Under the pieces are notes generated by a model. That model made no database searches. It was not told where the DNA came from and saw nothing but the letters and a program-made list of their open reading frames with translations. The position numbers were made by a program, and so were the translations under genes. Of a stretch of 64,000 nucleotides of DNA, positions 13,010-28,406 are shown one piece after another. Each line of letters opens with the position of its first letter. Position 1 is the first letter of the stretch. This DNA comes from an uncultured Pseudomonadales bacterium (GTDB taxonomy: Bacteria; Patescibacteriota; Microgenomatia; UBA1400; UBA1396): NCBI GenBank assembly GCA_964447905.1, contig CAYUUK010000005.1, positions 279-64,278 of the forward strand, given 5' to 3'.

Positions 13010-13012
13010 ACC

Positions 13013-13346: not shown

Positions 13347-13404
13347 TTGCCTCACTCTATCACCCAAAACAAACAACAAATGCACGGTATACTGAACTAC
13401 AGCT

Positions 13405-14547
13405 ATGCGCGTTCTCTTATTTGTCTATGAATACCCACCGCTTGGCGGTGGTGTGGCGAATGCTATTTATCACTTGCTGCAAGAATGGAAAGACGATGCG
13501 GACCTGACAATAGACGTGGTCACTTCTTCACTGAAAAATGAGTGGGAAACAGAGCAGCTCGCCAAGCGAATTGTGCTGCACCGAGTGCCCATTGGCGTGC
13601 GCTCTCCAGACAACTATCGCCGGCAAACGCTGGTGCATATGGTGAAGTACACGCTGGGATCGCTGTGGCGCGGAACTCGCCTGAAGATGAAAAACAGCTA
13701 CGATGTATCGCTTTCATTTGGGTATCCGGGGCCCGTGGCCAGTTGGTGGCTGTCGTGGTTTGGTGTGCCGTATGTCGTAGCGCTGCGCGGCGTGGATGTG
13801 CCTGGTTATAATCCGCGGTTTTCGTGGGGGAGCTGGGTGCATCGCTTGGTTATGCGGGTGCTGTGGAGCCGCGCCAAGGCGCTCACGGCCAATAGCCAGT
13901 GGCTCGCCGATGGAGCGCGGAAAACCTGGCCGCAGGCTCCGATTACCGTGATTCCGAATGGCGTTGATACTGATCTTTTCCAACCAGTGCCGCCAGAAGA
14001 CAAGTTTGCCGCCTTCACCGTCACCGCTGGCGGCACCGTCATGGGCAAAAAGAAACGCCTCGATGTTCTGATTGCTGGCTTTGCTGAGTTCGTGCAGGCA
14101 GAGAACTTAACCAGTAAAGAAGCCCAGCTGTTGCTGATTGGTGACGGTGATGAGTATGCTGCGCTGGTGCAGCTGGCGCAAGATTTAGAGATAGAATCTT
14201 ATGTTCGTTTTGTCGGCGCCAAAGACCGTAAATGGATTGCTCAAAACTTGCCGCGGTGTCATGTGTTTTGTTTGCCCTCGGTAGCAGAGGGCATGAGTAA
14301 TGCGGCGCTGGAGGCGATGGCGTGTGGGCTGCCGCTGGTTTTGAGTGATGTGGGGGCGGCAAGGGAGATGGTGCGGGGGAATGGGACAGTTTTGCAGTCA
14401 GTCTCGCCAGAAACAATTACGAAGACTTTGAGAGCTTGGCATGCCGATAGTGCTCTTCTTTTTACTATGAGTCAAAAAAGTGCGGCGTTGTCAGCAGAGT
14501 TTTCTTGGGGTATAGTGGGTAAAGAGTTGAAGGATCTATGGCAATAA
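13405..14547 (+). CDS. glycosyltransferase family 4 (GT-B, group 1)
   Basis: C-terminal FCLPSVAEGMSNAALEAMACGLPLV (E-x7-E GT4 motif). Confidence 0.85.
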   Translation: MRVLLFVYEYPPLGGGVANAIYHLLQEWKDDADLTIDVVTSSLKNEWETEQLAKRIVLHRVPIGVRSPDNYRRQTLVHMVKYTLGSLWRGTRLKMKNSYDVSLSFGYPGPVASWWLSWFGVPYVVALRGVDVPGYNPRFSWGSWVHRLVMRVLWSRAKALTANSQWLADGARKTWPQAPITVIPNGVDTDLFQPVPPEDKFAAFTVTAGGTVMGKKKRLDVLIAGFAEFVQAENLTSKEAQLLLIGDGDEYAALVQLAQDLEIESYVRFVGAKDRKWIAQNLPRCHVFCLPSVAEGMSNAALEAMACGLPLVLSDVGAAREMVRGNGTVLQSVSPETITKTLRAWHADSALLFTMSQKSAALSAEFSWGIVGKELKDLWQ

Positions 14548-15902
14548 ATTGGCGCAGACCGCTTATCTTTAGTCTCCTTACCCTGACGGGAAGTAAGGTT
14601 ACTTGGAACTTGCGCAAGATCTGGCAGTATCACCAACTGTCTTCTGCCGAACTCAAGCACATTCAAGACCAGAAACTCACAGAACTTCTTTTGCACGCCT
14701 ACAAAAAAGTGCCGTACTACCACGGAGAGTTACTGCGCCGTGGTGTCGTTCGCAAAAACGGCTCAGTAGATCTTCAAGCATTTACAGATATTCCAGTTAT
14801 GACGAAGGATCGCATGCGTTTGCTTGGTGAAAAATTGCACGCTATGGACCATAAGAAGCGGGGCAGTTTTGAGAATACTTCAGGTGGATCAACCGGTGAG
14901 CCGGTAGTGTTTTTGCAAGATGCACGATATAAGGACTGGAATATAGCTAATAAGTTGTACTATGCCGGACTGGTTGGGAAGCATGTTGGTGAGCGAGAAG
15001 TAAAATTGTGGGGATCAGAGCGAGATATTTTGCAGGGCTCAATCGGTGTTAAAGAACAGCTCATGAATTTTCTCTATAACCGCCTTCTTCTGAACGCTTT
15101 CTTGATGACAGAAGAAGATATGCGAGTGTATGTCGCCAAGATTGATGCCTTTCGGCCGCAGCATATTTGGACGTATGTGGACAGTATCTACCAACTCGCT
15201 CGTTTCATGGAAGCCAATACACTGCGCTTGCAGCACCCACCAAAGTCAGTTATTACCACTGCTGGGGTGCTCACCGAAGAGGTTCGTAGGTTTGTGGAGT
15301 TCGTCTTGAATACCAAGGTGTACAACCAGTACGGATCGCGCGAAGTTGGTGATATGGCTGCCGAAGACAAAACACAAAATGGATTAAATACTTTTCCTTG
15401 GACTCATTTTTTAGAGATTACTGATGCGGGAGAAATACTCGTCACTACCCTCGAAAATTACTCTATGCCACTGATTCGATACAAAATTGGTGACACAGCC
15501 GCGTGGCTCGATGAGAATAGGTACAAAACAGCGCAGAACGCAACTAGAAAACTTGCCAAGGTGACCGGACGAACCACCAATCATTTTCTGCGCGCTGATG
15601 GCACAGTAGTGCACGGCGAGTACTTTACGCACGTCTTTTACTTCAAATCTTGGGTGAAACGGTTTAAAGTGGTACAGGAGCAGTATGATTTGGTGCGATG
15701 TTTGGTCGTTTTAAATGGTCAGCCAAATCCGCAAGAACAAGCGCAAATGACTGCCGATATCAAGACCGTTATGGGAGAAGAGTGTGCAGTGGAGTTTGAG
15801 TTTGTAGAGGAGATCCTCCCGAGTGCTTCGGGGAAGTATTTGTATACGGAGAGTCTGGTTGTGAAAGAAAAAGGAGATCATGAGCTTCAAAAAAATACTT
15901 AA
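14538..15902 (+). CDS. PaaK/CapK-like adenylate-forming enzyme (phenylacetate-CoA ligase family)
   Basis: AMP-binding P-loop TSGGSTGEP. Length and layout fit the CapK/F390-synthetase family. Confidence 0.75.
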   Translation: MAINWRRPLIFSLLTLTGSKVTWNLRKIWQYHQLSSAELKHIQDQKLTELLLHAYKKVPYYHGELLRRGVVRKNGSVDLQAFTDIPVMTKDRMRLLGEKLHAMDHKKRGSFENTSGGSTGEPVVFLQDARYKDWNIANKLYYAGLVGKHVGEREVKLWGSERDILQGSIGVKEQLMNFLYNRLLLNAFLMTEEDMRVYVAKIDAFRPQHIWTYVDSIYQLARFMEANTLRLQHPPKSVITTAGVLTEEVRRFVEFVLNTKVYNQYGSREVGDMAAEDKTQNGLNTFPWTHFLEITDAGEILVTTLENYSMPLIRYKIGDTAAWLDENRYKTAQNATRKLAKVTGRTTNHFLRADGTVVHGEYFTHVFYFKSWVKRFKVVQEQYDLVRCLVVLNGQPNPQEQAQMTADIKTVMGEECAVEFEFVEEILPSASGKYLYTESLVVKEKGDHELQKNT

Positions 15903-16590
15903 AGAGTTGAATAGGAAGGTCGCAAAACAATACGCAGGTACTCGTGCGTACTGGATGAGATCACCTGCTGGGATATCTTTACTGAAAACAACTGAGTATG
16001 CTCTTGAGAAATATACCTCAGGAGGTGATTTTCTTGATGCAGGAGCTGGTAAATTGGCCTATCGTTCACTGTTGAAAGAGTATGCAGATACATATACCAG
16101 TTGTGATTTTCAGAAGGTTCATCCAGAACTAGATGTAGTGACGGATATTGAAAAAATGTCTTTCAAGTCAAAGAAGTTTGATCTCGTTTTTTGCTCCCAA
16201 GTTTTAGAACATGTGCCGCACCCTTGGCTGGCTCTCGGTGAGATGTACCGTGTTTTAAAGCCATCTGGAACGGCAATTATTACTGTCCCCATGCTTGGGT
16301 ACATTCACAATGCACCCTATGATTTTTACCGCTACACCCAATACGGTCTGCATACACTCGCTGAGGATGCAGGTTTTACTGTATTGGAGATTGCTCCTGT
16401 AGGTGGATTCTTTGCATTTCTAGGATACGTATTTACTACGCTTATTTCGCCATTGTATGGAGTTCCTTTTGTTGGAAAACTCCTCGTTCCGCTCCTCTAT
16501 CCGTTGTACTGGACATTTTTACAGTTAGATAGAATTACTAACAATGAGTCTTTTTTTCCGCTTAACTATCTCCTCGTGGTAAGAAAATAG
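15880..16590 (+). CDS. class I SAM-dependent methyltransferase
   Basis: LDAGAG (motif I), DLVFCSQVLEHV, VLKPSG. AAGGAG Shine-Dalgarno. Confidence 0.8.
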   Translation: MSFKKILKELNRKVAKQYAGTRAYWMRSPAGISLLKTTEYALEKYTSGGDFLDAGAGKLAYRSLLKEYADTYTSCDFQKVHPELDVVTDIEKMSFKSKKFDLVFCSQVLEHVPHPWLALGEMYRVLKPSGTAIITVPMLGYIHNAPYDFYRYTQYGLHTLAEDAGFTVLEIAPVGGFFAFLGYVFTTLISPLYGVPFVGKLLVPLLYPLYWTFLQLDRITNNESFFPLNYLLVVRK

Positions 16591-16591
16591 T

Positions 16592-17509
16592 ATGAAAGTT
16601 TTTTTTGCTGGCGATACAATTTTCCCTAATACGAAGCGTACTGTACAGTCAGAAGTCTTAGAGACTCTCGCGGATTCATCATTGTATTTAAATCTAGAGT
16701 CTGTACTTCTCTCAAAGCGGCCCATAAACAGTGATGCATCCTTGATCGCAAAATTACTCGGAAATTATCCAGTTTTTTCTCTTAGCGAAAATAGTGAAAA
16801 TTTCCCTGTAAAGAATGTGTTTTTCTTTCTATCGAATAATCACATTTTCGATTTTGGGAAAAAAGGCATATTGCGTACAGTGCAGTTTTTAGAGGAAGAA
16901 AACAAAGCTCATCAATCAGTAGATTTAGTAGATGGAGTCATAGTGGAAGTTCCTGTTGCCAATCAGGGAAGAATTCTTATTTATAACTGTAATCTTGTAA
17001 ACCCGAGTAAATATGGGGTGAACGTAAATATCTACAATCATAGGTATGGGAGCTTTCCTTTTTCGATTAGAGATGTCAATCGAGCGTTGCAAAATGTGGA
17101 ATATTCAGATGTTTTGGCAGTCATAGGTTTTCCGCACTTGGGGAAGTGTGGTCGAGATAATTTTAGCCCTCACGATTTTGCACAGCTTACGTCACTGCGG
17201 CAATATATTCCGAATTCTATTCCACATATAGTTTTAGGTCATCACTCACATCAAAATGGGAAAACGCATTATTTGCCTGAAAGCAATCAATTTTTACTCT
17301 ATAGCCTTGGTAATTTTATTTTTGAAGAGGTCCATGGTCGTTTTACGGATAAGTATTTTTATAATTACCTCGCCGAGGTAGATGTACAGTCAGGTAGAAT
17401 TGATATCACCCTGCACAAGATATATAGTGATGATCAGGAAATCAGGTTGGTTTCAGATAACGAAAAGTCGTATTATCCGACTGATAATATTGAACAGATA
17501 TCTTTGTAA
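16592..17509 (+). CDS. CapA-like metallophosphoesterase (PGA_cap family)
   Basis: FFAGD...NLES, SNNHIFDFG and GHHSH match the CapA pattern GD/NLE/ANNH/H-x-H. Confidence 0.55.
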   Translation: MKVFFAGDTIFPNTKRTVQSEVLETLADSSLYLNLESVLLSKRPINSDASLIAKLLGNYPVFSLSENSENFPVKNVFFFLSNNHIFDFGKKGILRTVQFLEEENKAHQSVDLVDGVIVEVPVANQGRILIYNCNLVNPSKYGVNVNIYNHRYGSFPFSIRDVNRALQNVEYSDVLAVIGFPHLGKCGRDNFSPHDFAQLTSLRQYIPNSIPHIVLGHHSHQNGKTHYLPESNQFLLYSLGNFIFEEVHGRFTDKYFYNYLAEVDVQSGRIDITLHKIYSDDQEIRLVSDNEKSYYPTDNIEQISL

Positions 17510-17524
17510 AGAATAAGGAAATCT

Positions 17525-17947
17525 ATGGACTACACAATCCAAGAATTTGAAAAAATAAATGATTCTCGAGGTGAATTAGTTGTTTTTCTGAAAAGTGATG
17601 AGCTCGATGAACGGGATCGAGAGTTTGGGCAGATTTATTTTGTTACTTTTGAAGGTGAAAACCAAATTCGTGGTGAACACTATCATAAACATTGGCGTGA
17701 GTGGTTCGGCGTGGTATCTGGGAAAATATTGGTCCGTCTTAAAGATGTACGTAGCGGAGAAAAAAAAGAGATCATTATTGATGCTGACCACAGTAAGTAT
17801 GTGCGTTTAGAAACCGGTCCGTATGTTGTTCACGGTTTTAAGAGTATTTCTGAGTATGCTGCCATGATCAACTATGCTAATGGCATGTGGTCAGAGAATG
17901 ATACGTTTGCTCACCCATTATTTAATGAGGAGTGGAATGAAGAATAA
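17525..17947 (+). CDS. WxcM/FdtA-like cupin (sugar 3,4-ketoisomerase family)
   Basis: DSRGEL...IYFVTF...RGEHYHKH fits the FdtA-type cupin core. AAGGA Shine-Dalgarno. Confidence 0.6.
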   Translation: MDYTIQEFEKINDSRGELVVFLKSDELDERDREFGQIYFVTFEGENQIRGEHYHKHWREWFGVVSGKILVRLKDVRSGEKKEIIIDADHSKYVRLETGPYVVHGFKSISEYAAMINYANGMWSENDTFAHPLFNEEWNEE

Positions 17948-18947
17948 TTCTGCGGTACGAGTACTAGTTTCAGCAGTTGGCAGTACAACAGCTTTATCTG
18001 CTATAAAAGGTTTTCGGCGTGGTACTCTTCCAGTGTATATCTTGGGTACAGATAGTAATTCGCACGATACCGTTGCTGGCAGCGTATTTTGTGATGCTTT
18101 TGAGCGAGTACCACTTTTTCATTCTGATGAATATATACCCAAAATGCTTGAGGTATGCGAAAAGCACAAGATCCAGGTTATTGTTCCGATTGTTGATGAA
18201 GAAGTGTTACTTCTGTCACAAAACAAAGCAGCCTTTTTAGAAAAGGGTATACACATAGTAGCTTCTTCGCACGAAACAGTGTTGAATTGTAATGATAAAT
18301 TAAAGACATATCAGGCGCTGCTGGCCCAAGGAGTGGAGACAACTCCTACTTGGTTGCTTGAAGAAGTAGAAGCTAGCAGCGTCATATTTCCTCTTTTCTC
18401 GAAGCCTAGAAAAGGCCTCAGTAGCCGCGGAATCTCGCTAATCTCTACGGTTGAAGAGTTGCAGTCACTGCGGTCGAAATCTAGTGATTGTGTAGTACAA
18501 CCATACTATCCAGGTACACTCTACGTTGTGGATGTGCTCAATACTACAGATGGAAAGAACATATTTGCTCTGCCAAGAATAGAACATGAATCAAAAAGTG
18601 GAGTTGGCGTAAAATCCACCACTACTCATAATGATACACTTACAATGATATCTCGAGAGGTGAGTGAGGCTCTTGGTATTTGTGGTCCAGCAAATATAGA
18701 GTTCATCCAGACAGAAGATGGCGAGTTTCATTTTATTGAGATTAATCCTCGTTTTTCTGCTGGGTCAATTCTGAGTACTGTTGCTGGAGTGAATATTCAT
18801 CAGCAAGCGCTTGAGTTGTTTCTGGGAAAAGATAGAAATGAGGCACTTGAGTTTTTATCTGGGGTTACTATGACTCGTTATTGGCAGGAAGTGTATTATA
18901 GAGATGGAGAAGAATTTGGGTCACAGAGGGATGAAGCATGGATTTAA
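17937..18947 (+). CDS. ATP-grasp ligase
   Basis: ATP-grasp fold layout: pre-ATP-grasp region, the central nucleotide-binding segment ...SKPRKGLSSRGI..., and the C-terminal IEINPR. GAGGAG Shine-Dalgarno. The 11-nt overlap with the cupin gene suggests coupling. Confidence 0.65.
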   Translation: MKNNSAVRVLVSAVGSTTALSAIKGFRRGTLPVYILGTDSNSHDTVAGSVFCDAFERVPLFHSDEYIPKMLEVCEKHKIQVIVPIVDEEVLLLSQNKAAFLEKGIHIVASSHETVLNCNDKLKTYQALLAQGVETTPTWLLEEVEASSVIFPLFSKPRKGLSSRGISLISTVEELQSLRSKSSDCVVQPYYPGTLYVVDVLNTTDGKNIFALPRIEHESKSGVGVKSTTTHNDTLTMISREVSEALGICGPANIEFIQTEDGEFHFIEINPRFSAGSILSTVAGVNIHQQALELFLGKDRNEALEFLSGVTMTRYWQEVYYRDGEEFGSQRDEAWI

Positions 18948-19870
18948 CGAGGAAAAAGATAGTCATCACAGGTGGTACCGGATTTATTGGGACGCATATA
19001 GTAAATAGTCTTCTATCTTTGGGAGCTGAGGTGATTTCTTTTTCTCGTAAAGAGCGTCTATCGCACCATCCCCGTTTGCATTTTGTGCAGTGTGACCTTT
19101 TCGAGTCATCTTTGCAGGAATACGAATCACTGGCAGATGTTATCGGACAAACTGATGCTGCCATATTTGCAGCGGCTAGTATCTTGCCTCGGAGCGAGGG
19201 CGTAGATAGTTTAATTGCGGCTAAAGAGAAAAACTTCGATACATTTTTGAATTTCACGGAGACCGTCGGAAAAAAAACAAAGCAAGTAATATTTACCAGC
19301 ACTATAGATGTTTATGGAGTTCCTGAACACGAAGAGTACAGTGAGGAACATCGAATTTTACCCGAGTCTTCCTATGGAGTCGCTAAGTATGCAGCTGAGA
19401 AGTATCTTGAGTATTGGTCTCGGCAAAACAGCATTCCGTATACCGGTTTGCGTTTTTCTCAAGTATATGGACCGAATGAGCCATTGGTTCGTGTCATTCC
19501 TTTTGCCGTGCAAGCTTGGAAAGAGAAAAAAGCCTTTCGCTTGATCAATGGAGGCACAGATAAGAGAAGATTTCTGTATGTCCAAGATGCTGTTTCCTCA
19601 ATCATATCTGCACTAAGTACCAATAAAAATACTTTTTACAACATTGCTGGAGAAGATGTGGTTACGATTAGGGATATAGTTTCCACGATTGAAACACTGA
19701 CTGGTTCCACGATGGAAATCCAAGATCTGGTCCAAGAAGGTCGAAGGCCAGTGCATAATGTACCAAGTATAGCCAAAGCGAAAGATGAACTTGGCTTTCA
19801 ACCGGAGTACTCTTTTATAGCCGGGATGAAAGAAGTATTAAAGGATGTATATGAACATGAACAAGAGTAA
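18938..19870 (+). CDS. NAD-dependent epimerase/dehydratase (SDR)
   Basis: VITGGTGFIGTHIV Rossmann motif; YGVAKYAAE gives the YxxxK catalytic pair. Confidence 0.8.
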   Translation: MDLTRKKIVITGGTGFIGTHIVNSLLSLGAEVISFSRKERLSHHPRLHFVQCDLFESSLQEYESLADVIGQTDAAIFAAASILPRSEGVDSLIAAKEKNFDTFLNFTETVGKKTKQVIFTSTIDVYGVPEHEEYSEEHRILPESSYGVAKYAAEKYLEYWSRQNSIPYTGLRFSQVYGPNEPLVRVIPFAVQAWKEKKAFRLINGGTDKRRFLYVQDAVSSIISALSTNKNTFYNIAGEDVVTIRDIVSTIETLTGSTMEIQDLVQEGRRPVHNVPSIAKAKDELGFQPEYSFIAGMKEVLKDVYEHEQE

Positions 19871-21131
19871 ACAACTTTTTGATGAGTACCAAAAATATGT
19901 GCTTGAGGTGACGCCGTTTCGCGCCCCAATTCTTGCATCGGCTCAAGGAAGTTACTATAAAGATATCGATGGAAACAGCTATCTTGATCTTATGGGAGGC
20001 CAGTTTTGTGAAGTGTTGGGTCATGGAGATGAAGAGTTAGCGGAAGTGGTGTATAAACAGAGTAAAAAGATTTTACATACCAATACATTGTGTTTGACGG
20101 AAGAGGTTCTCGAAGCATGTCGTGCACTCAGTGAAATAACAGATGAAAAGCTACAAAAGACAATTTTACTTTCCACAGGAGCTGAAGCAGTTGAATGTGC
20201 ATTACGATATGCTCGTTTTTACACCAAGAAAGATGGGATTGTTTCGATCACCAACGGGTACCACGGTTTAACATTAGCAACGCAAAGTATTTCGAGTGGC
20301 GGGGCATATGCTCATCCCCTAGTTCCTGGTTCCCACTTTATTCCAACTCCTGATTGGCACAATCGTCCTGATGATATTGATGAAGGGGAGTTTATAGATC
20401 AACACCTTAAAGCTGCCGAAGAGTATCTAGTGGCATATGAAGGCACCCTCGCCGCCTTCATTATCGAGCCAGTGGTATCAGTTGGAGGAATGATTTATTT
20501 ACCCAAAGAGTACTTTATCGGACTAGCGGAGATTGCCAAAAAGCATGACGCTCTGCTAATCTATGACGAGTGTCAAACTGGACTGGGTCGACTTGGCACC
20601 TGGTTTGGGTATGAGCGAACTGGCATAGTACCAGATATTTTAATTTTAGCGAAAGCAGCAGGACTCGGTTTTCCAGTTTCAGCAGTTATGTTTTCTCAAG
20701 AAATTGCGGAGGCTGTAGAAGGAAAGTTCATTCACTTTAGCTCGCACCAAAATGATCCTTTTTCTGCTCGAATGGTACTTCACTTAGTCAATACGATAAA
20801 AAAAGAAAATATGCTTTCAACAATTCGGGAAAGCGGTGAGTACTTTGTAAGTCGCCTGCAAGAGCTTTCTAAAAAAAGTGCTTTGCTGTTGCGGCCGCGT
20901 GGAGAAGGACTCATGATTTCTTTCGATTTACCAGAAGAGCACTTTACTGAGACGATAAATCCCGGAATGCGGCTCATTGATTTGCTTGAACAGCACGGGG
21001 TAATGGTGCAGGCAATCCACAGAGGTAAGACGTTCCGTATAATTCCAAGTTATCGCATTTCTCGAGACGAAATTGATTTTTGTATTAAGACACTCGATAC
21101 CTGTTTACAAATTTTAGAAAAGGAACTATGA
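19851..21131 (+). CDS. class III PLP-dependent aminotransferase
   Basis: IYDECQTGLGRLG (D-E-x-Q-T-G) and ILAKAAGLG (PLP lysine region). Start chosen 5 nt after AAGGA. Confidence 0.8.
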   Translation: MNMNKSKQLFDEYQKYVLEVTPFRAPILASAQGSYYKDIDGNSYLDLMGGQFCEVLGHGDEELAEVVYKQSKKILHTNTLCLTEEVLEACRALSEITDEKLQKTILLSTGAEAVECALRYARFYTKKDGIVSITNGYHGLTLATQSISSGGAYAHPLVPGSHFIPTPDWHNRPDDIDEGEFIDQHLKAAEEYLVAYEGTLAAFIIEPVVSVGGMIYLPKEYFIGLAEIAKKHDALLIYDECQTGLGRLGTWFGYERTGIVPDILILAKAAGLGFPVSAVMFSQEIAEAVEGKFIHFSSHQNDPFSARMVLHLVNTIKKENMLSTIRESGEYFVSRLQELSKKSALLLRPRGEGLMISFDLPEEHFTETINPGMRLIDLLEQHGVMVQAIHRGKTFRIIPSYRISRDEIDFCIKTLDTCLQILEKEL

Positions 21132-22228
21132 AAGTACCTTTCGTTGATCTCTCCCAACAATATAAAGAGGTGAAAGTTGAACTGCAGAAGGATTTCGATC
21201 GGGTTTTTGCAGCACAGAACTTCATTTTAGGAAATGAAGTTGAGCAGTTTGAAAAAGAATTTGCCGCGTATATTGGGAGTAAGTACTGTGTAGGTGTTGG
21301 AAGTGGAACAGATGCACTTATCCTCGCCTTAAAGGCAATGGGTGTCGGTGAGAATGATGAGGTGATTTTGCCCACACACACTTTTGTAGCTACTGCTTTG
21401 GCGGTGATCGAAACAGGAGGAACCCCAGTTTTTGTGGATGTGGATGAGGCTACTCTGCAAATGGACGTGGATGCTGTCGCTGCTGCTATAAACACTAAGA
21501 CAAAGGTTATTCTGCCAGTTCACTTATATGGATCCATGGTTCCAATGGACAGACTTGTGCAGTTAGCTCAGAAGCACGATATTCAGATTTTAGAAGACGC
21601 TTGTCAGGCACATGGTGCGACGTATTCTGGGCAAAAAGCCGGGACATTTGGTAGTATGGCTGCCTTTAGCTTTTATCCTGGGAAAAATCTGGGCGCTTAT
21701 GGCGATGCTGGGGCAATTGTTACTAATGATCCTGAACTCTATGAACAGGCCAAACTCCTGCATAACTATGGGCAAAGAAAAAAGTACCATCATGAAATGC
21801 TCGGAAAAAATTCTCGTCTCGATGAGCTTCAGGCTGCATTTTTGCGGACAAAACTCCTGCATCTGGATAGCTGGAATCAGCAAAGAAAGCAAATTGCCCA
21901 AAAGTATAACGCTTCTTTAGGGCAGTATCGCTTGGAAGTTCCTGATGAAATAGAGAGTGTATATCACCTATACGTGATCCAGCATCCTCATCGTGATGAG
22001 TTGCAGGCATATTTAGAAAACCATGGGGTGAATACGCTTATTCACTATCCCATACCATTGCACATGCAGCAGTGTTTTAAGTACATGAATCATGCTCCGG
22101 AAGAGTATCCGATTGCCGAAAAGTACACAGCACGGATTCTTAGTTTACCAATTTATCCTGGCATGACTGATGAGCAGGTAGACTATGTCATTGAGCAAAT
22201 TCTGACGTTTGAGAACGAGAAGAAATGA
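21128..22228 (+). CDS. DegT/DnrJ/EryC1/StrS-family sugar aminotransferase
   Basis: Typical N-terminus VPFVDL...ILG.EV..FE..FA.Y and the SFYPGKNLGAYGDAGAI PLP-lysine box. Confidence 0.85.
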   Translation: MKVPFVDLSQQYKEVKVELQKDFDRVFAAQNFILGNEVEQFEKEFAAYIGSKYCVGVGSGTDALILALKAMGVGENDEVILPTHTFVATALAVIETGGTPVFVDVDEATLQMDVDAVAAAINTKTKVILPVHLYGSMVPMDRLVQLAQKHDIQILEDACQAHGATYSGQKAGTFGSMAAFSFYPGKNLGAYGDAGAIVTNDPELYEQAKLLHNYGQRKKYHHEMLGKNSRLDELQAAFLRTKLLHLDSWNQQRKQIAQKYNASLGQYRLEVPDEIESVYHLYVIQHPHRDELQAYLENHGVNTLIHYPIPLHMQQCFKYMNHAPEEYPIAEKYTARILSLPIYPGMTDEQVDYVIEQILTFENEKK

Positions 22229-23196
22229 GATCCCCAACGGTTTCTATCACGCTAGCAACATATAACAGAACGGAATTTCTGCAAGGGACTCTCGATTCTT
22301 TAGTCGCGCAAACGTATCAAGATTTTGAGATTATCTTGGTGGATGATGGCTCAACAGACAATACCCCACAGCATATTGAACAATTACTAAAAAATAAGAA
22401 GTATGCAAAGGTTCGATTTTTTCCACTACCAGAGAATAGAGGAATAGCGTTTGCTATATCCTACGCAATGCAGCACTCAAAAGGTAAGTATATCTCCCAT
22501 ATTGGCTCGGATGATCTATGGCAGAAAACGGCTCTTGAAAAAATGGTGCAGGTGCTCGATACCAATTCAGAAGTTGGTGTTGTGTACACAGATGCCTCTC
22601 GGATTGATAGAGATGGCAAGATACTTTCTGAATCTCGTTTTGCTGAGAACCCAATAGGACCTCAAAAAGGCTGGGTTTTTAAAGACTTGCTTCTAAAGGG
22701 AATGTTTGTGTCCGCTATCTCAGTTACGTTTCGGCGATCTTTGTATGATATTGTTGGCGATTTTGATACTAACTATAGCATTAGTAATGATTACGATTTC
22801 TTTATGCGCTGTTCCGCTCATGCACAATTTGACTATATTAATGAGGTCTTAGCTTGTTGGAGAATGCATGACAAAAATCTTCATAAGAAAGACAAAACAC
22901 AAGCTTACATAGAGAGAATAGCGGTTATTCAAAAGAATTACATGGCATGTGGCAAGGAATTCCATATCTCCGAATTGAGATATCGAACTATAATTTCTAG
23001 TATTTATCTTCAAACTGGAATTTTCAAAGCACAAGCGGGCGACTTTGCGGAAAGCCGACCGTATTTCATTAAAAGTTTGATGTTTATGCCAGTAAATATT
23101 TTAGCGTTTGTGTTGTTTTTTAACACATATCTGAAATTACGATGGTTATGGCATTTTGAAATATATAAAAAAGTATATTTGCGAATGTTTAAATAA
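22225..23196 (+). CDS. glycosyltransferase family 2
   Basis: SITLATYNR...ILVDDGSTDNT and the GSDD DxD region. Confidence 0.8.
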   Translation: MRSPTVSITLATYNRTEFLQGTLDSLVAQTYQDFEIILVDDGSTDNTPQHIEQLLKNKKYAKVRFFPLPENRGIAFAISYAMQHSKGKYISHIGSDDLWQKTALEKMVQVLDTNSEVGVVYTDASRIDRDGKILSESRFAENPIGPQKGWVFKDLLLKGMFVSAISVTFRRSLYDIVGDFDTNYSISNDYDFFMRCSAHAQFDYINEVLACWRMHDKNLHKKDKTQAYIERIAVIQKNYMACGKEFHISELRYRTIISSIYLQTGIFKAQAGDFAESRPYFIKSLMFMPVNILAFVLFFNTYLKLRWLWHFEIYKKVYLRMFK

Positions 23197-23198
23197 GT

Positions 23199-24140
23199 AT
23201 GAAACAGATACAATCACTTATGACCACGAAATGGTTTCGATATGGTGTTTCGATTCTTTTGACGGTTTTTCTTGTTTATTACTTTGTTGATTTTGGATTC
23301 TTTTTTGAAAATCTGTTGTCTACACGCTGGGAATACAGTATCATTCCAATTGTTTTTTACTATTTTCTTTTGGCGGCAATGGCTATGCGATGGCGTGTAG
23401 CTTTACGGCACTTATCAATCCATGTGCCATTGAGTGAACTCTTTTTGCTCTATTTGAAACACAACTGTATAAACCAAATTTCTCCAGGAAGTATCGTTGG
23501 AGATGGATATCGTGTTATTCATCTAAACAAAAAATACTCGGTGCCGAAAACTCTTTCTCTCTCGACAGTTATTATTGAGCGAATAGTAGGATTAAGTACA
23601 CGTATTCTTCTATTTGTACTCTTTTCTTTGTACCTATTTACCCAAATTGACTTTGTTTCTTTTGATTCCACTTCTCTCACAAAATATGTGTATTTGATAC
23701 CTGTTGTCGGTGTGATCTTCTTGGTTTCCCTTAAGCTATTTAAGAATAAACTCTTTTCTTTATTCAACACTGTGAAAAGTACTCTTCTAAATAGATATGT
23801 ATTAGTGGCTTCAATTGGTTTTACGCTTCTTGCTCAGGGAATACAGATTATTATGGCGTATGGAGTAGCTTTAATGGTCTCACTTCCGGTATCTCTCTAT
23901 CAGATAGGATTTGCTTTTGTGCTGGTAGAGCTCATCATGCTCATACCAGTCAGTGTGAATGGTTGGGGGACAAGGGAACTGGTTTTGATATATACCCTAG
24001 GAATATTTGGTGTGGATCCAACACTCACAACACTTTTTGCACTGATGAGCCGTGCTGTATATGTTTTCCTTACGTTACAAGGTCTTCCTTTTGTTATCCA
24101 TGAGTTTGGATTAAGAAATACTTTCAAGAAGCAACAGTAA
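23199..24140 (+). CDS. UPF0104/LPG-synthase-TM 'flippase-like' membrane protein
   Basis: 8-TM protein immediately after a GT2, the usual GT2/UPF0104 pairing. Confidence 0.55.
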   Translation: MKQIQSLMTTKWFRYGVSILLTVFLVYYFVDFGFFFENLLSTRWEYSIIPIVFYYFLLAAMAMRWRVALRHLSIHVPLSELFLLYLKHNCINQISPGSIVGDGYRVIHLNKKYSVPKTLSLSTVIIERIVGLSTRILLFVLFSLYLFTQIDFVSFDSTSLTKYVYLIPVVGVIFLVSLKLFKNKLFSLFNTVKSTLLNRYVLVASIGFTLLAQGIQIIMAYGVALMVSLPVSLYQIGFAFVLVELIMLIPVSVNGWGTRELVLIYTLGIFGVDPTLTTLFALMSRAVYVFLTLQGLPFVIHEFGLRNTFKKQQ

Positions 24141-24141
24141 T

Positions 24142-26658
24142 TTATTTTTTGGTATAACTATACACAACTATTGGTTCATTTCTTCTGCCAGAATGCACAC
24201 CGACTTCGTCTATTGGGCTGACAAAGCGTTTCGTAAATATATCCATAACATAGAGCGAAAGTGTATTGTTATGCTCACTAAAGCGTCGGCCAGCGAATAG
24301 CCACAGCGTTTGGCCAGATTTCATTTGGGTAAGTACTTGTGTAAGCTCGTCAGCGTTTCGAATGTATGGTGTGTTTGAGTAGATCGAAAGAACCTTATTA
24401 CTTCCAGATGGAATATATCCCATTTCGGAGCTCAAAGTTCCATTCATGATGTAGTCGTATTGACCATAGTGCCAGGGGTTGTAGATATCTGTAACTACAT
24501 ATATATCATTTGGCCGCTTGTGGTTACTGATGAAGGATAGTGCTTCCAGTGATCGTGGACTTCTGATAACAGCTGTAATTCCGTGAAACACGTGTGGGTT
24601 TTCAAGTAGCTTTGTGTAGAGCTTTGCCTGAGAGATCGTGCTGCTAGAGTAGAGTTCAATGTCACCAACACGGTTTCTTTCAAAGTAGTAGTGACTGGCA
24701 TAGTCTTTTACGGTACGTGAGGAAAGGATACCAATCAAGAGTGTACCGATAAAAACGAATGGCAACAGTTTTTTTGAAATTGATAGTTTTTGCACAAGAG
24801 AAAAAAGGATCCAGATGGCAAAAATACCAAAAGCAATATATGTGCCGAGCAAATACTTAACGGCAAAGCGATTAAACAGTAAGAATCCAAAAAGGAAGTT
24901 AAGGAGAGAAAAAATACCGATTAGAGTTATTTTTTCTGGTATCTTGATGTCTAGAGTGCGCCGTTTTAGAAGAAAATAGAGCGTAAGCACCACAATGAAT
25001 ATCAAAATTCCAAGATGACTGTAGAGTATGGTCGAACTGTAGTAGTGGAATGTGGGTAAAAAAGAATCTAAAACCCCAACTGTATTCGAAGACTGGACTG
25101 CATAGGTTCCTTTTAGGAAATGCAGACGGTAAAAATTGAGAATTTTAAAATTAAAGAGGTATCCCGCTGTAAAGCTAGCAAGGAGTGACAGCAATGAGAC
25201 ATTTCTCAACCATTTCCATCGATCTCTAAGCACCAAAAACACTAGGAAAGCCGGTATTACTGCATAGCTGAACAAAAGACTTGAACCAGCTACAAAGACA
25301 ATACCAATATATGTGGCAAGTTTGCTCTTTGATATTTTTTGAATGGAAGTTTGGTGGAAGATAGCAAGTGAGAGAAAGAGCAGTAAATATCCAATCATGT
25401 AGTGGCGAGCTTGAGTAGACCAAGCAATAAGATAGGGATATGTAGCAGCATATATCCCAACACCACATGCGAATACTTTGTTTGTATTTTTATAGAACTG
25501 AGTTAAGAAGTACACAAAGGCAACACCTGTAAGTAACGAGACAAGTCGCATAGAAAAGTGATTCGTGCCCAGAAGCAATCCACTGAGAGCTGTTAGGTAA
25601 CTGAAGAGATAACCTCGCATATATAGTTGGCCTGATTCGAAGAGAGGAAAACCATTTTTGAGAATGGCATCAGTGATGAGAGGGTAGAGCCCTTCGTCGC
25701 CACTAAATGGTAACAGCGAAATGTTGAGGAGTCTCAGTATTGCTGCAAATAGGGTGGTGTAGAGTGAAAGTACAATAAATCGATGTTCTCGAGTTTGTGA
25801 ACCACTCTTTTCTGCGGAGAAGAAGTTAAGACGTATTCTTTTTTGTAATCGGATGGCTAAGAGTGTTGCGGAGCTCAAAAATGGTCCAAAGGAAATAAAG
25901 ATGACAGCGATATATTGTTCAAGTTTGTTAAAAATATACTCAGATTCATATACAGCTTTTTTGTACAGAAAATTAAGGAATTCTGTAGGGTCATTTCTAA
26001 AATCTGCGATCGAGAAGATGTGTCGATAGTAAACTGCTTCTAGCAAAAGTTCGCCAGAATTCGGAAGTATTTGGTAGGTATAGGTTTTCTGCTTGGATTT
26101 AAGTTTTGGAAAACCGAGAATCATTGTTTTTTCTTGAGTCGGGGTAAACTCAGTCTCGAAAAGCCATTCTGTTGAGTCTTTTTCTTTCAGTCGAAAAATA
26201 AAGTTGCTCTGCATCGGTGTTTTGAGTGTAACGAGCAGAGTGCCAAAATTATTTACAGTGGATTCGTAATAACCTTCATATGCATGCGTATTTGTTTTCT
26301 CCTCTTCTGTGAGAGCTTTATAAACAGTAATGTTTTTGGGAGGATGGGTTTCAAAATGATGTTGTGAAACTGAAAAAGAACCTGATAGAAACGTGAAAAT
26401 AGCAATGCTGGCGAGTAGTAGCGGTGAAAAAAGAAAAGAGATACCCAACTCAGTTACTGAATGAATGATTGCCCTAAATTGAATTTTCTTCCAATTGAAG
26501 GCAATAAGGCTAACGGTACTAATGATTGGTGCGAGAATAAAAAAATTTGGGAGTTTGAAGTATGGATGCGGACTAAAAAACTGGAGACAAAAGAGTAAAC
26601 CTGTCAGAGCAGAAAAAAGTAGAAATACTCGTGCTAACGAGGCAAAAGATAATTTCAT
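24142..26658 (-). CDS. GT-C glycosyltransferase (ArnT/PMT GT39/GT83-like) with extra N- and C-terminal domains
   Basis: Core PFSGDEGLYPLITDAIL...PLFESGQLYMRGYLFSYL matches the DE-x-Y loop-1 motif of the ArnT/PMT family. More than 12 TM; 838 aa. Confidence 0.65.
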   Translation of the reverse strand: MKLSFASLARVFLLFSALTGLLFCLQFFSPHPYFKLPNFFILAPIISTVSLIAFNWKKIQFRAIIHSVTELGISFLFSPLLLASIAIFTFLSGSFSVSQHHFETHPPKNITVYKALTEEEKTNTHAYEGYYESTVNNFGTLLVTLKTPMQSNFIFRLKEKDSTEWLFETEFTPTQEKTMILGFPKLKSKQKTYTYQILPNSGELLLEAVYYRHIFSIADFRNDPTEFLNFLYKKAVYESEYIFNKLEQYIAVIFISFGPFLSSATLLAIRLQKRIRLNFFSAEKSGSQTREHRFIVLSLYTTLFAAILRLLNISLLPFSGDEGLYPLITDAILKNGFPLFESGQLYMRGYLFSYLTALSGLLLGTNHFSMRLVSLLTGVAFVYFLTQFYKNTNKVFACGVGIYAATYPYLIAWSTQARHYMIGYLLLFLSLAIFHQTSIQKISKSKLATYIGIVFVAGSSLLFSYAVIPAFLVFLVLRDRWKWLRNVSLLSLLASFTAGYLFNFKILNFYRLHFLKGTYAVQSSNTVGVLDSFLPTFHYYSSTILYSHLGILIFIVVLTLYFLLKRRTLDIKIPEKITLIGIFSLLNFLFGFLLFNRFAVKYLLGTYIAFGIFAIWILFSLVQKLSISKKLLPFVFIGTLLIGILSSRTVKDYASHYYFERNRVGDIELYSSSTISQAKLYTKLLENPHVFHGITAVIRSPRSLEALSFISNHKRPNDIYVVTDIYNPWHYGQYDYIMNGTLSSEMGYIPSGSNKVLSIYSNTPYIRNADELTQVLTQMKSGQTLWLFAGRRFSEHNNTLSLYVMDIFTKRFVSPIDEVGVHSGRRNEPIVVYSYTKK

Positions 26659-27251
26659 AAAGTGCTTGGATCCTGAATAGTAAAGTATTTATATTTATCA
26701 CAGATATTATTTGTATTGCAGAGGCGTAAAATTGCGTTGTCTATAGGTTCTGTTACAGGTTGTTTTATAACAACTTTTTCATTTTCCCATCGGACAATGA
26801 TGAAGTTTGTATTTCCGACCGTGACTGTACCTGCTTGCCAGGGATCACCAAAATTTTGACCATTCAGAGACACATAATCACCTTGAATTGAAGAAGTACT
26901 ACTGAGAGAGTGTATCCTTAGTGCTGTGAATGAATTTGTGCCCGTGATAAAGAACAGAATTGCTATTGGAAGAAAAGAAAGAAAAACCAATACGTAAATA
27001 AGCGGGTTTCTTTTTTGAGCAATAAATTCACCTACCCAAAAAGCAACAATTGAAGAAATTAAGAGGCATATCGCTTGAAATATTAAAAAAAATGACTCGA
27101 AAGGGACTCGAGTTTGAAAGGAGAGTAATGAGCCGCTACTCAAGAGTATTACAAAAATTAGTAGAGCAAAGAAGAGTTTCCAAACAAAGAGATTCGCTGA
27201 TATAGGGATTGCTCGTATTAACTTTTTGGCCTGAGTCGTAATAGCATGCAT
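26655..27251 (-). CDS. membrane protein (3–4 TM plus a soluble C-terminal domain), unknown function
   Basis: ORF with TGA/ATG overlap to the downstream GT-C. Hydrophobic N-terminal half. Confidence 0.4.
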   Translation of the reverse strand: MHAITTQAKKLIRAIPISANLFVWKLFFALLIFVILLSSGSLLSFQTRVPFESFFLIFQAICLLISSIVAFWVGEFIAQKRNPLIYVLVFLSFLPIAILFFITGTNSFTALRIHSLSSTSSIQGDYVSLNGQNFGDPWQAGTVTVGNTNFIIVRWENEKVVIKQPVTEPIDNAILRLCNTNNICDKYKYFTIQDPSTL

Positions 27252-27258: not shown

Positions 27259-28170
27259 TTACTTTAAAAAGTAGTTTTGGTTAGATTTCTGCTGTATCAT
27301 CAAATCCATAATCAACCCACTCACAAACATCTGAAACCCAAACAATATCAAGAAGATAGCCATCAGGGGCCAGATGCGATCGCTCAAACTGTAGCCCCAA
27401 ACCAAGCGGGCGAAAAAGAGCCATGCCAAGAGAGCTACTCCGCTGCTGCCTAACAAAATCCCCACCCCGCCCAAAAAATGCAACGGCCTCGCCGAGTACT
27501 TCTGGAAGAACCACAAACTCAGCATGTCCAAGAAGCCCTTGAGCGTGCGCTTAAAGTTGTACTTCGTAGTGCCGTGGATGCGTGCGCGGTGGTTGGTGAC
27601 CATCTCGCCAATCTGGAAGCCGCGCCACTTCAAGATGGCCGGAATAAAGCGGTGCATCTCGCCGCGGAGATTCACGCCTTCGAAGCACTCTTGTCGATAG
27701 ACGCGCAGCGTACAGCCGGAGTCATGCACTCCATCGCTCACCAAAAACGAGCGCAGCCAGCGGGCGCCCTGGGAAATAAAGCGTTTACTAAAGGTATCCT
27801 TGCGGCGTTTGCGCCAGCCGCAGACTACATCGAGGTCTTCTTTGAGCAGTTTCTCCAGCATTTTTGGTACGTCGGCGGGGTCGTTTTGCAGGTCGCCGTC
27901 GAGCGTGACTAAGAACTCGCCTTGGGCGGCTTTGATACCGGCGTCCATCGAGGCGGTTTGGCCGAAGTTGCGGCGCATGCGCAGGATGGTGATGGGATCG
28001 AGTTTTAGCAGTTCGGCGTAGGTGTTGTCGGTGGAGCCGTCGTCTATAAAGATGATCTCAAATGGTTTTTTTATCTTTTTGGCCGCCGCCACTATTTCGC
28101 CATGCAGCGTGGCCACGTTTTCCTCTTCGTTCATGACAGGCACGATAAATGAAATGTACGGCGTAGACAT
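27259..28170 (-). CDS. polyprenyl-phosphate sugar synthase (GtrB/ArnC/DPM1-like GT2)
   Basis: ISFIVPVMNEEEN...IFIDDGSTDNT...TLDGDLQNDP...RGFLDM plus two C-terminal TM segments. Start set at MSTPY (28170). The track ORF's extra N-terminus looks non-coding. Confidence 0.8.
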   Translation of the reverse strand: MSTPYISFIVPVMNEEENVATLHGEIVAAAKKIKKPFEIIFIDDGSTDNTYAELLKLDPITILRMRRNFGQTASMDAGIKAAQGEFLVTLDGDLQNDPADVPKMLEKLLKEDLDVVCGWRKRRKDTFSKRFISQGARWLRSFLVSDGVHDSGCTLRVYRQECFEGVNLRGEMHRFIPAILKWRGFQIGEMVTNHRARIHGTTKYNFKRTLKGFLDMLSLWFFQKYSARPLHFLGGVGILLGSSGVALLAWLFFARLVWGYSLSDRIWPLMAIFLILFGFQMFVSGLIMDLMIQQKSNQNYFLK

Positions 28171-28406
28171 GCTATTTACTATACCAGGTTGTGCGTTTTG
28201 TGTGAAGGTTGGGTGGTATAACAGAACGTATGCGGTTTCAATTCCGAAAAATAATACGTATAGGAGCACAAAGATGGATCGGAATTGTCCAACGGCGTGA
28301 TTACACACATACAGCTATTACACTTTTACAAGTAACGTTTGGTGTGGCCTGGGCAAGTTTGCTGAATATTCAACACATCCAGGCTCCAGCAGCTCTGGGA
28401 AATTTG

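Follow-up and report, generated by a model that had tools for sequence, protein, structure and literature searches.

The 64,000-nucleotide stretch analysed here (referred to as the window; contig CAYUUK010000005.1) carries a large surface-glycan locus. Judged by its composition and gene families, the part of this locus at 15.8–27.3 kb, called the cassette below, is an AT-rich, lineage-specific variable module. The site of the locus was bounded on the left by the tyrosyl-tRNA synthetase gene (TyrRS) and a group of frame genes led by Wzx, and on the right by tRNA-Val and Dus. The window genes for SecA, TyrRS, GltX, LysS and enolase indicated bacterial DNA, and protein identities place the host in Candidatus Woesebacteria (Patescibacteria, also called the candidate phyla radiation, CPR), with the lineage Patescibacteria group; Microgenomates group; Ca. 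Woeseibacteriota. The window TyrRS was 90% identical to a Ca. Woesebacteria protein, the next relatives being at 66–77% and other Patescibacteria at about 60%. The backbone protein Dus showed 76% identity to a Ca. Woesebacteria metagenome-assembled genome (MAG) in a scan of species-representative genomes.

The locus was compared with several related assemblies. L001 comes from a Logan assembly, made independently, of the sample that gave the window (SRR7048223). The loci of a sister species are L003 and L020–22 (four NCBI MAGs), together with L029 and L030, one further Sequence Read Archive (SRA) run being among the sources. L026, L027 and L028 are more distant relatives with the same site (TyrRS identities of 76%, 69% and 66%, respectively), and their comparison covers the first 10 kb after TyrRS. 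L023 is a distant Logan contig with glycan genes only, L024/25 come from a "Patescibacteria group" MAG, and L031 from a Parcubacteria MAG. Homologues with taxon names were analysed for one cassette gene, encoding the ATP-grasp ligase, and for the backbone TyrRS.

Gene content and composition of the locus

A first-pass annotation, made from the letters alone, had listed eleven genes in the cassette, including one for a glycosyltransferase (GT) of the GT-C class of 838 amino acids (aa). All these calls held in Pfam and NCBIfam or, for the GT-C, through its homologues, a profile match to ArnT and its predicted fold. The features of the locus are as follows.

8578–9864 (+): Wzx-like flippase, frame gene (Pfam)
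9879–12266 (−): YfhO-like GT-C, frame gene (Pfam)
12155–13009 (−): GT2, frame gene (Pfam)
13405–14547 (+): GT4, frame gene (Pfam)
14538–15902 (+): CapK/PaaK-like adenylate-forming enzyme of the acyl-AMP/CoA ligase type (PF27533 CapK_C; weak NCBIfam matches to PaaK and DVU_1553)
15880–16590 (+): class I S-adenosylmethionine methyltransferase (Methyltransf_11, E = 2e-15), the first low-GC gene, with GC 0.409
16592–17509 (+): CapA-like protein (PGA_cap, metallophosphoesterase-type) with no predicted transmembrane helix (PF09587, E = 1e-10)
17525–17947 (+): FdtA/WbuC-like cupin, putative keto-sugar isomerase (PF05523, E = 2e-10; NCBIfam WbcJ C-terminus and WbuC cupin)
17874–18947 (+): ATP-grasp ligase, PRK12767 "carbamoyl-phosphate-synthase-like" (Pfam, NCBIfam)
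18938–19870 (+): short-chain dehydrogenase (SDR) of the nucleoside diphosphate (NDP)-sugar epimerase/dehydratase family (PF01370, E = 1e-38; weak similarity to RmlB, GalE and LegB)
19845–21131 (+): class III pyridoxal-phosphate aminotransferase, ArgD/GabT-type (PF00202, E = 3e-81)
21128–22228 (+): DegT/PseC-type sugar aminotransferase (PF01041, E = 1e-124)
22225–23196 (+): GT2 glycosyltransferase, TuaG/EpsE-like, with one C-terminal transmembrane helix (Pfam, NCBIfam, transmembrane scan)
23199–24140 (+): UPF0104/flippase-like (MprF-TM type) membrane protein with about seven transmembrane helices (PF03706, E = 6e-34; TIGR00374; transmembrane scan)
24142–26658 (−): 838-aa divergent GT-C glycosyltransferase (PMT_2 matches of homologues, ArnT profile match, predicted fold)
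26655–27251 (−): 198-aa membrane protein with three transmembrane helices and a C-terminal IPT/TIG Ig-like domain, called the TIG protein below (Pfam, transmembrane scan)
27259–28308 (−): ArnC/PgfS-type polyprenyl-phosphate GT2 with two C-terminal transmembrane helices (NCBIfam ArnC, E = 7e-39; PgfS, E = 3e-33)
28596–29594 (−): GalE/RmlB-like NDP-sugar epimerase/dehydratase (Pfam, NCBIfam), GC at third codon positions (GC3) 0.65, 86% identical to the sister protein
29611–29685 (−): tRNA-Val(CAC), directly at the right end of the locus (ARAGORN, Rfam)

The real start of the ATP-grasp gene is probably near position 17,937, in line with the 336-aa call of NCBI, and that of the ArnC-like GT2 is probably near 28,134–28,170. 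The epimerase is the first gene of the minus-strand operon.

The first-pass annotation had estimated by eye a fall in GC across about 11.4 kb, between positions 15,880 and 27,251. The sliding profile (1-kb windows) bore this out, with GC of 0.35–0.43 at approximately 16.0–27.5 kb and 0.45–0.55 on either side. A maximum-likelihood fit of two change-points over 8–36 kb (log-likelihood ratio 142) located them at 15,833 and 27,358, within about 50–110 bp of the estimated edges, and the three fitted segments had GC values of 0.500, 0.394 and 0.491. The GC of the cassette was 0.395, compared to 0.446–0.477 in 16 backbone segments of the same size. Its eleven open reading frames ranged from 0.357 to 0.434 in GC and from 0.29 to 0.41 in GC3, with a mean GC3 of 0.347 +/- 0.030 against 0.450 +/- 0.053 in 35 backbone genes (Mann-Whitney p = 9.6e-6). 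The bias towards the amino acids F, I, K, N and Y (FIKNY) noted in the first-pass annotation was also present, at 0.290 in the cassette and 0.205 in the backbone; the share of G, A, R and P (GARP) was 0.193 and 0.246, respectively. A mere membrane-protein composition was ruled out as the explanation of the low GC: the seven soluble enzymes were GC3-poor as well, and because they kept a FIKNY share of 0.263 when taken alone, the bias is not simply a membrane-protein effect.

The size of the fall had been overestimated. The GC values quoted for the flanking genes were correct (0.539 for the GT4, 0.513 for the GT2 and 0.535 for the epimerase), but these genes had a GC3 of 0.58–0.67, whereas the backbone of the genome showed a GC of about 0.47 and a GC3 of about 0.45. 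Since the immediate flanks are GC3-enriched, the apparent contrast was exaggerated: a real drop exists, of about 7 points of GC and 10 points of GC3 relative to the genome instead of the 10–20 points of GC first estimated. The glycan locus therefore holds three compositional classes, namely the low-GC cassette, a GC3-enriched frame and the backbone. The numbers within the NCBI names of Woesebacteria range from 33 to 45; we take these to be GC percentages, following a naming convention, and many members would then have a lower GC than the window genome.

The frame genes of the window (Wzx, YfhO-like, GT2, GT4, ArnC-like GT2 and epimerase, at 8578–14547 and 27259–29594) showed a GC3 of 0.54–0.67. 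This was above the genome backbone (about 0.45) in the window, and frame-gene GC3 was above backbone in the sister as well; the L026 orthologues were backbone-like (0.37–0.42). The enrichment could reflect codon selection for expression or a separate history.

The 838-aa GT-C, its partners and the predicted pathway

The 838-aa protein had no match in Pfam or NCBIfam, and a Pfam search at E <= 5 with three orthologues also returned none. When 1.84 billion cluster representatives were searched exhaustively with HMMER, only three relatives reached E <= 1e-30 (79%, 37% and 31% identity), and a word-indexed homologue search returned the protein itself and one 79% relative. The weaker GT-C matches all aligned at residues 290–500 or so, to the N-termini of the matched proteins. 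In an alignment of the window protein and 41 homologues, 35 of the 42 sequences matched PMT_2, D321 was invariant and E322 near-invariant, in keeping with the acidic motif that GT-C enzymes have in their first extracytoplasmic loop. A profile of four orthologues gave nothing meaningful against the PDB sequences; the match appeared after the distant homologues were added, when the profile of 42 sequences had ArnT (5ezm) as its best match, with E = 1.8e-4. The AlphaFold2 model had a pLDDT of 71.9, with most of residues 290–510 above 90, and the top 22 PDB matches in Foldseek were all GT-C structures, ArnT being the first (E = 1e-7, TMt 0.51–0.53). The homologues matching PMT_2, the ArnT profile match and the Foldseek result together identify the protein as a GT-C with a predicted ArnT-like fold. 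An ArnT/PMT_2-like core occupied approximately residues 290–650. It was preceded by a lineage-specific N-terminal part of about 290 aa, with four transmembrane helices and a beta-rich loop, and followed by a C-terminal soluble domain of about 190 aa.

The ArnC-like GT2, the TIG protein and the GT-C are encoded in this order in one minus-strand operon, the ArnC-like gene lying 8 bp upstream of the TIG gene. The TIG protein was always found between the other two (L003, L020–23, L030), and the trio was kept in the sister and in the distant L023. This arrangement suggests that the GT-C uses a polyprenyl-phosphate sugar donor, which the co-operonic ArnC-like GT2 would supply. The latter has a GC3 of 0.67 and lies outside the low-GC block; its protein was 93% identical to that of the sister and 68% to that of L023. 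The GC step at 27251/27259, the sharpest of the region, thus probably splits one functional unit, made of the enzyme that produces a lipid-linked donor and the enzyme that uses it.

The ArnC-like GT2 was unusually conserved at silent sites, with a four-fold-site difference to the sister of 0.30, compared to 0.50–0.70 for other genes. In L023 its GC3 was 0.49, and that of its neighbours 0.30–0.35. A second candidate pair for lipid-linked extracytoplasmic glycosylation was present on the minus strand at 9879–13009, where the reading frames of the 795-aa YfhO-like GT-C and of a GT2 overlap by about 110 nt; both were kept in the sister and in L026.

From the family assignments, the SDR, the cupin isomerase and the DegT-type 4-aminotransferase would produce an NDP-amino-deoxy sugar. 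A substituent in amide linkage, possibly methylated, would be attached to it and elaborated by five further proteins: the class III aminotransferase, the ATP-grasp ligase, the CapK-like enzyme, the methyltransferase and the CapA-like protein. Loading of the sugar onto a lipid carrier would fall to the GT2 enzymes, with the ArnC-like one forming a polyprenyl-phosphate sugar, and the UPF0104 flippase-like protein or Wzx would take the product to the other side of the membrane. Its final transfer to an acceptor on the cell surface would be the task of the GT-C, probably aided by the TIG protein. The cassette is likely to serve the making of a modified amino sugar that reaches the surface by a lipid-linked route. 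The nearest NCBIfam models of the DegT protein were 4-aminotransferases, namely PseC, PRK11706 (dTDP-4-amino-4,6-dideoxygalactose transaminase) and WecE. The CapK-like ligase and the methyltransferase (14538–16590) had their best, weak NCBIfam matches in the DVU_1553 family AMP-dependent CoA ligase and the DVU_1556 family methyltransferase, respectively. These families are named after neighbouring genes of Desulfovibrio, which hints at a recurrent pairing of ligase and methyltransferase, at scores far below the cut-offs.

Three known systems resemble parts of this predicted pathway. The Arn pathway, which adds 4-amino-4-deoxy-L-arabinose (L-Ara4N) to lipid A, shares with the cassette a DegT aminotransferase, an SDR, an ArnC-like GT2 and a GT-C for which ArnT is the best match. 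Both follow one logic, in which an amino sugar made in the cytoplasm is converted to a lipid-phosphate sugar, flipped and transferred outside the cytoplasm. The likeness is limited to ArnB-, ArnC- and ArnT-like members, and family scans of the locus found neither the ArnA formyltransferase/decarboxylase fusion nor ArnD nor ArnE/F. Since these are missing and none of the NCBIfam scores comes near its equivalog cut-off, the cassette is not a member of the Arn pathway. Compared to ArnT, the window GT-C has the additional N-terminal part of about 290 aa and a partner with a TIG domain. Lipid A synthesis is not known from CPR bacteria, and the acceptor must therefore differ from that of Arn.

In the Gtr systems of Shigella and Salmonella phages (GtrA/GtrB/Gtr(type)) and in CsbB/GtcA/YfhO of Firmicutes, a polyprenyl-phosphate GT2 and a GT-C are encoded together, as they are here, and a pre-made surface polymer is decorated outside the membrane. 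Gtr-type modules are classic serotype-converting units that move laterally. The second pair at 9879–13009, a GT2 with a YfhO-like protein in the same locus, adds to the likeness with CsbB/GtcA/YfhO. No GtrA/GtcA-family flippase was matched in the family scans, the UPF0104/TIGR00374 protein (23199–24140) and Wzx (8578–9864) being the only candidates. Unlike Gtr, the module had no prophage context and no phage match, and it is coupled to a pathway of eight to nine genes for a bespoke sugar. The third system, Fdt/Qdt, makes dTDP-3-amino-3,6-dideoxyhexoses with an isomerase (FdtA), an aminotransferase (FdtB) and an acyltransferase (FdtC), and the cassette likewise has an FdtA-family cupin near a DegT and an SDR. 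It differs in that its DegT protein scored best against 4-aminotransferases of the PseC and WecE type, and in that the ATP-grasp ligase and the class III aminotransferase, which are foreign to Fdt, are here the most conserved partners. Family scans of the block identified neither an FdtC-like acetyltransferase nor RmlA.

The cassette in the sister species and in other Patescibacteria

The gene order in the sister species was identical to that of the window: TyrRS, Wzx, YfhO-like, GT2, GT4, CapK-like, the eleven cassette genes, ArnC-like GT2, epimerase, tRNA-Val and Dus. The junctions were shared, and the GC step fell at the same gene boundary. The tRNA-Val(CAC), at which the L001 contig ends exactly, was kept beside the locus in the sister (blastn). 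The cassette proteins were 62–93% identical to those of the sister, in line with the spread among backbone proteins (90% for TyrRS, 87% for MgsA, 76% for Dus and 42% for the C39-like protein); the orthologues of the left frame were at 75–83%. The methyltransferase was at 87%, the CapA-like protein at 74–76%, the class III aminotransferase at 92% and the cupin at 93%. The TIG protein, which has the lowest GC3 of the cassette (0.29), was the fastest-evolving (62%). In the sister, GC3 was 0.36–0.41 in the cassette and 0.58–0.68 in the frame.

At four-fold sites the cassettes of the two species differed by 0.566 (a distance of about 1.09), and the NG86 method gave a synonymous distance (dS) of 1.43 and a nonsynonymous distance (dN) of 0.11, with a dN/dS of 0.08. 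These values indicate that the cassette and its junctions predate the species split and have been under purifying selection since. The first-pass annotation had read the block as a swapped-in serotype cassette. A distinct module inside the glycan locus does exist, but the same junctions in the sister and a silent divergence of about 1.1–1.4 rule out a recent or strain-level swap. Sliding nucleotide identity to the sister was uniform (0.70–0.87) across both GC boundaries, ruling out the right-hand GC step as a later recombination junction. Some genes were split in sister MAGs (GT4 and GT-C in L020, PGA_cap in L021, many in L022) and all were intact in the window. The splits are probably low-coverage assembly errors, the alternative being real pseudogenisation in some populations.

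At greater depth the site anchored by TyrRS and Wzx is, from the gene orders compared, NEVERTHELESS hypervariable. TyrRS, followed by small open reading frames and Wzx, marked the left side in the window, the sister, L026, L027 and L028, and tRNA-Val/Dus the right side in the window, L003 and L030. L026 kept the left frame gene for gene, with identities of 63% for Wzx, 74% for the YfhO-like protein, 69% for the GT2 and 76% for the GT4 (63–76% overall). The CapK-like gene was missing there, so that the GT4 was directly followed by an orthologue of the methyltransferase (64% identity), and then by a GT4-like gene and a gene of 268 aa unrelated to the cassette. In L027 and L028, TyrRS and Wzx were followed by entirely different glycan genes. 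The variable genes of the three relatives encoded other GTs, SDRs, a DegT protein and methyltransferases, with no cassette orthologue apart from the L026 methyltransferase. In each case they were GC3-poorer than their own backbone (0.29–0.33 versus 0.37–0.44 in L026, 0.27–0.37 versus 0.41–0.56 in L027, and 0.31–0.38 versus 0.44–0.56 in L028). The first-pass view of the locus as a mosaic is borne out by these differences at one site and by the presence of sub-blocks in other glycan contexts.

The most complete distant counterpart was L023, in which the C-terminus of CapK was followed by PGA_cap, cupin, ATP-grasp, SDR, class III aminotransferase, DegT, GT2 and UPF0104 genes, accompanied by those of the GT-C, the TIG protein and the ArnC-like GT2. 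Its cassette proteins were 32–66% identical to those of the window (35% for the CapA-like protein, 62% for the cupin, 66% for the class III aminotransferase). L024/25 held the core alone, from cupin through ATP-grasp, SDR, class III aminotransferase and DegT to GT2 (50% identity for the cupin, the first gene of this Patescibacteria-wide conserved core, and 55% for the class III aminotransferase), followed by a Wzm/Wzt ABC exporter. In L031 the cupin, ATP-grasp, SDR, class III aminotransferase and GT2 genes lay within another cluster, next to other GTs. The GC of the core block was 0.40–0.48 in every host background. A metagenome-contig scan with the DegT protein for related cassettes gave relatives at <=48% identity among the matches listed, none accompanied by other cassette genes.

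These comparisons show that the compositional edges do not coincide with the edges of the module as gene content defines it. The low-GC limits had been taken as those of the cassette, yet the methyltransferase inside them is common to L026, the CapK-like gene outside them is variable though not low in GC (0.456, near backbone), and the ArnC-like GT2 travels with the cassette in L023.

The ATP-grasp homologues formed a ladder of identities, from 81% in Woesebacteria and 49% in L023 to 42–44% in Patescibacteria and 35–39% in other phyla and archaea, and the backbone TyrRS showed the same ladder. In a neighbour-joining tree of 119 homologues, the window ATP-grasp protein grouped with the sister, L023 and one further sequence, inside a clade of 13 members of which all those named are Patescibacteria; Spirochaetes, Salinibacter, haloarchaea and methanogens fell outside. 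The first-pass annotation had expected cassette genes to have their homologues in phyla different from those of the flanks. For the ATP-grasp ligase, the gene testable with taxon names, the closest homologues belonged instead to the lineage of the flanks, Woesebacteria at 81% and then only Patescibacteria among the named matches, an outcome that the annotation had itself listed as refuting its reading. Large protein databases held no homologue of the ATP-grasp ligase at 49–81% identity and none of the GT-C at 37–79%. Such a gap would be expected if the intermediate relatives lack the cassette.

Origin of the cassette

A tetranucleotide z-score comparison, which had been proposed as a check of foreignness, gave a correlation of 0.63 between cassette and backbone (TETRA), inside the range of 0.47–0.71 of native segments of the same size, with low power at 11 kb. 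The dinucleotide delta* was 43, for a null maximum of 40.5. No integrase or transposase was present among the annotated open reading frames of the window, and a search for insertion scars found only short flanking repeats at chance level; one inverted pair, situated upstream of the two operons, was just partly kept in the sister. No duplicated tRNA end was seen, Rfam showing only three intact tRNAs, with tRNA-Val 2.4 kb beyond the GC step; with neither a duplicated tRNA fragment nor an integrase, nothing points to tRNA-Val(CAC) as an integration site. A phage or plasmid vector was rejected, as there was no phage DNA match and the plasmid protein matches were all below 30%. With regard to the features of genomic islands, an atypical base composition was present; the whole cassette, however, was found in the sister (TyrRS 90%), and only at a TyrRS identity of <=76% did relatives lack it in the 10 kb that were visible.

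We consider it probable, with fair confidence, that the cassette is an AT-rich variable module building an amino-sugar glycan, in place before the split from the sister species and derived from an older exchange of modules inside the phylum. The most economical history has modules passing between Patescibacteria at a time when the two species had not yet separated. Two sub-blocks would have circulated, the core of cupin, ATP-grasp, SDR, class III aminotransferase, in some cases DegT, and GT2, and the trio of ArnC-like GT2, TIG protein and GT-C. The exchange would resemble that by which O-antigen and capsule loci diversify. Unlike the composition, gene families, GT-C fold, synteny, distribution and divergence, which were observed, the direction and date of any transfer are what we infer.

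Several points weigh against this reading. No transfer event was directly demonstrated, in that no donor, mobility gene, repeat or att site was found. The tetranucleotide signature was host-like, a test with little power for 11 kb and a donor of the same phylum. The patchy distribution could also have arisen through repeated loss, and the cassette could in principle lie elsewhere in the genomes of L026–L028, beyond the visible 10 kb. GC at four-fold sites (GC4) was 0.35 and 0.40 in the cassettes of the two species and 0.49 and 0.56 in their backbones; with such a persistent offset, AT-richness could be actively maintained in the cassette genes and not be a fading signature of import. As to function, family scans identified neither a nucleotidyltransferase nor an N-acyltransferase in the block, and the product, its acceptor and the sequence of reactions are putative, as deduced from gene families.

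The rival explanations differ widely in probability. A recent serotype cassette from a distant, lower-GC donor of another phylum, with low GC as its unameliorated signature, would account for the sharp step at 27251/27259, for an 11.5-kb block at 0.395 against 0.446–0.477, for the shifted amino-acid usage and for a delta* slightly above the null maximum. We regard it as very improbable, because the sister has the same cassette, junctions and GC step at a dS of about 1.1–1.4, the best homologues are in Woesebacteria and then in other Patescibacteria, and the tetranucleotide signature is host-like. Mobility genes, repeats and phage or plasmid relatives were also lacking, and the right GC step splits the conserved ArnC-like/TIG/GT-C unit. 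A recent or cross-phylum import does not fit. The weightiest rival, unlikely as we judge it, dispenses with horizontal transfer: the cassette would be ancestral in these Woesebacteria and lost or replaced elsewhere, its AT-richness being a maintained property of this class of genes, for example through weak expression under AT-biased mutation with little codon selection, or through protein-level constraints. The GC offset is indeed stable in two species after (near-)saturating silent divergence and tracks the genome-wide shift in GC4, and in all four lineages the variable glycan genes, different as they are in content, have a higher AT share than the backbone. The core block stays at 0.40–0.48 everywhere, the ArnC-like GT2 is GC3-richer than its neighbours even in L023, and the host-like TETRA result fits too. 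But the content of the site is completely different in relatives with a TyrRS identity of 66–76%. The closest cassette outside the sister (L023) is much more diverged than the TyrRS of these relatives, with no intermediates in the databases, and the core occurs in unrelated architectures (Wzm/Wzt-type, Wzx-type), which movement of modules explains more easily than loss alone.

The two Woesebacteria species might also, once separate, have exchanged the whole locus, frame and cassette (about 8.5–29.6 kb, or possibly from 5.4 kb onwards), by homologous recombination; the common junctions would then stem from this later transfer and not from shared ancestry. This would be compatible with module exchange as the origin of the cassette, and we think it unlikely, somewhat more so than an ancestral cassette. 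The proportion of synonymous differences (pS) was 0.61–0.64 in the locus, with a dS of 1.3–1.4, compared to a saturated pS of 0.73 in 16 backbone genes; dN was 0.11–0.13 against 0.29, and TyrRS and the F420 ligase gene beside the locus also had a low four-fold-site difference (p4) of 0.50–0.52. Yet the backbone is saturated, and its sample is small and includes fast-evolving proteins. Wzx, within the locus, had a p4 of 0.70, codon constraint could lower p4 in conserved genes, and with more than one substitution per silent site separating the two loci any exchange must be ancient. As an observation in its own right, the region of about 5400–29600 (locus, TyrRS and F420 ligase), compared with L003, L021 and L029, was approximately half as diverged at synonymous sites as the sampled backbone. 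Finally, an in silico joining of the low-GC block from another organism, by assembly or binning, has a negligible probability. The source assemblies are metagenomic and the compositional steps abrupt, but the same junctions recurred in L001, in the four NCBI MAGs (L003, L020–22) and in the sister lineage of a further SRA run, and this recurrence in independent assemblies leads us to reject a chimera. The genes moreover overlap or abut at the junctions (14538/14547, 15880/15902 and 27251/27259).

The cassette, with its older module exchange, is an ordinary example of the evolution of a glycan locus, of an architecture long known from O-antigen and capsule clusters. The O-antigen clusters of Salmonella consist of segments of differing GC, all below that of the genome, which were read as a sign of lateral assembly (Reeves and colleagues, PMC3715488). 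Like the rfb/O-antigen and capsule variable regions of Salmonella enterica, the cassette occupies a fixed site between conserved genes, with a content that varies among related lineages (PMC3715488). In those clusters as here, sugar-biosynthesis, glycosyltransferase and Wzx/Wzy-type processing genes stand together in segments differing in GC, the serotype-specific genes for sugar pathways, GTs and processing being the lowest. The differences are that here species or genera of an uncultivated CPR lineage vary, and not strains of one species, that one cassette is common to two species more than one silent substitution per site apart, that the frame genes are GC3-enriched relative to the genome, and that the locus is known from its genes alone. 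This mosaic architecture thus also operates in Woesebacteria, which are CPR bacteria with tiny genomes and a presumed host-attached lifestyle. For genome scans there is a caution, in that a sharp GC step marked neither a recent or foreign insertion nor the boundary of a functional module. The yield is modest: a sugar-modification block that is conserved among Patescibacteria, and a GT-C subfamily of very few members with a TIG partner. As a tentative idea, rather unlikely in our opinion, the core block, restricted to Patescibacteria among the named closest matches, might make an undescribed amide-decorated amino sugar, delivered along an unusual lipid-linked path by the ArnC-like GT2, the TIG protein and the extended GT-C to the surface of an episymbiotic CPR cell. 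If this were true, module exchange would be the way in which ultra-small bacteria vary the surface shown to hosts and phages.

Other features were observed near the locus. The motif CACCAAACGT[AT]A[CT]TTGT[GA]AA was present at 13263–13295 (+) and 28320–28352 (−). The two convergent operons are each preceded by one copy, oriented alike, which lies ahead of the GT4 in one case and ahead of the ArnC-like GT2 in the other. The right copy was partly kept in the sister MAGs and the left copy was not; the motif may be a promoter or operator shared by the operons, or a chance similarity. A CofE-like gene (F420-0:gamma-glutamyl ligase) at 5405–6439 (+), beside TyrRS, had the same position in the sister, L026 and L027, and is a curious presence for CPR, where the genome supports a minimal metabolism. 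A second glycan cluster (33122–38068), located past Dus and the C39-like gene, encoded a GT2, a Wzx-type flippase, another GT2, a 279-aa protein and a Wzy_C/O-antigen-ligase-like protein. It had the GC of the backbone and was far more diverged from the sister than the low-GC cassette (45–68% aa identity). A further low-GC stretch (38116–45339, GC3 0.33–0.34) contained a gene for a protein with a protein-kinase domain, only 31% identical to its sister orthologue, and genes for large proteins on the minus strand, of 836 aa (41321–43831, no Pfam match) and 539 aa (43720–45339). This stretch may be another fast-evolving or acquired region for surface or host interaction.

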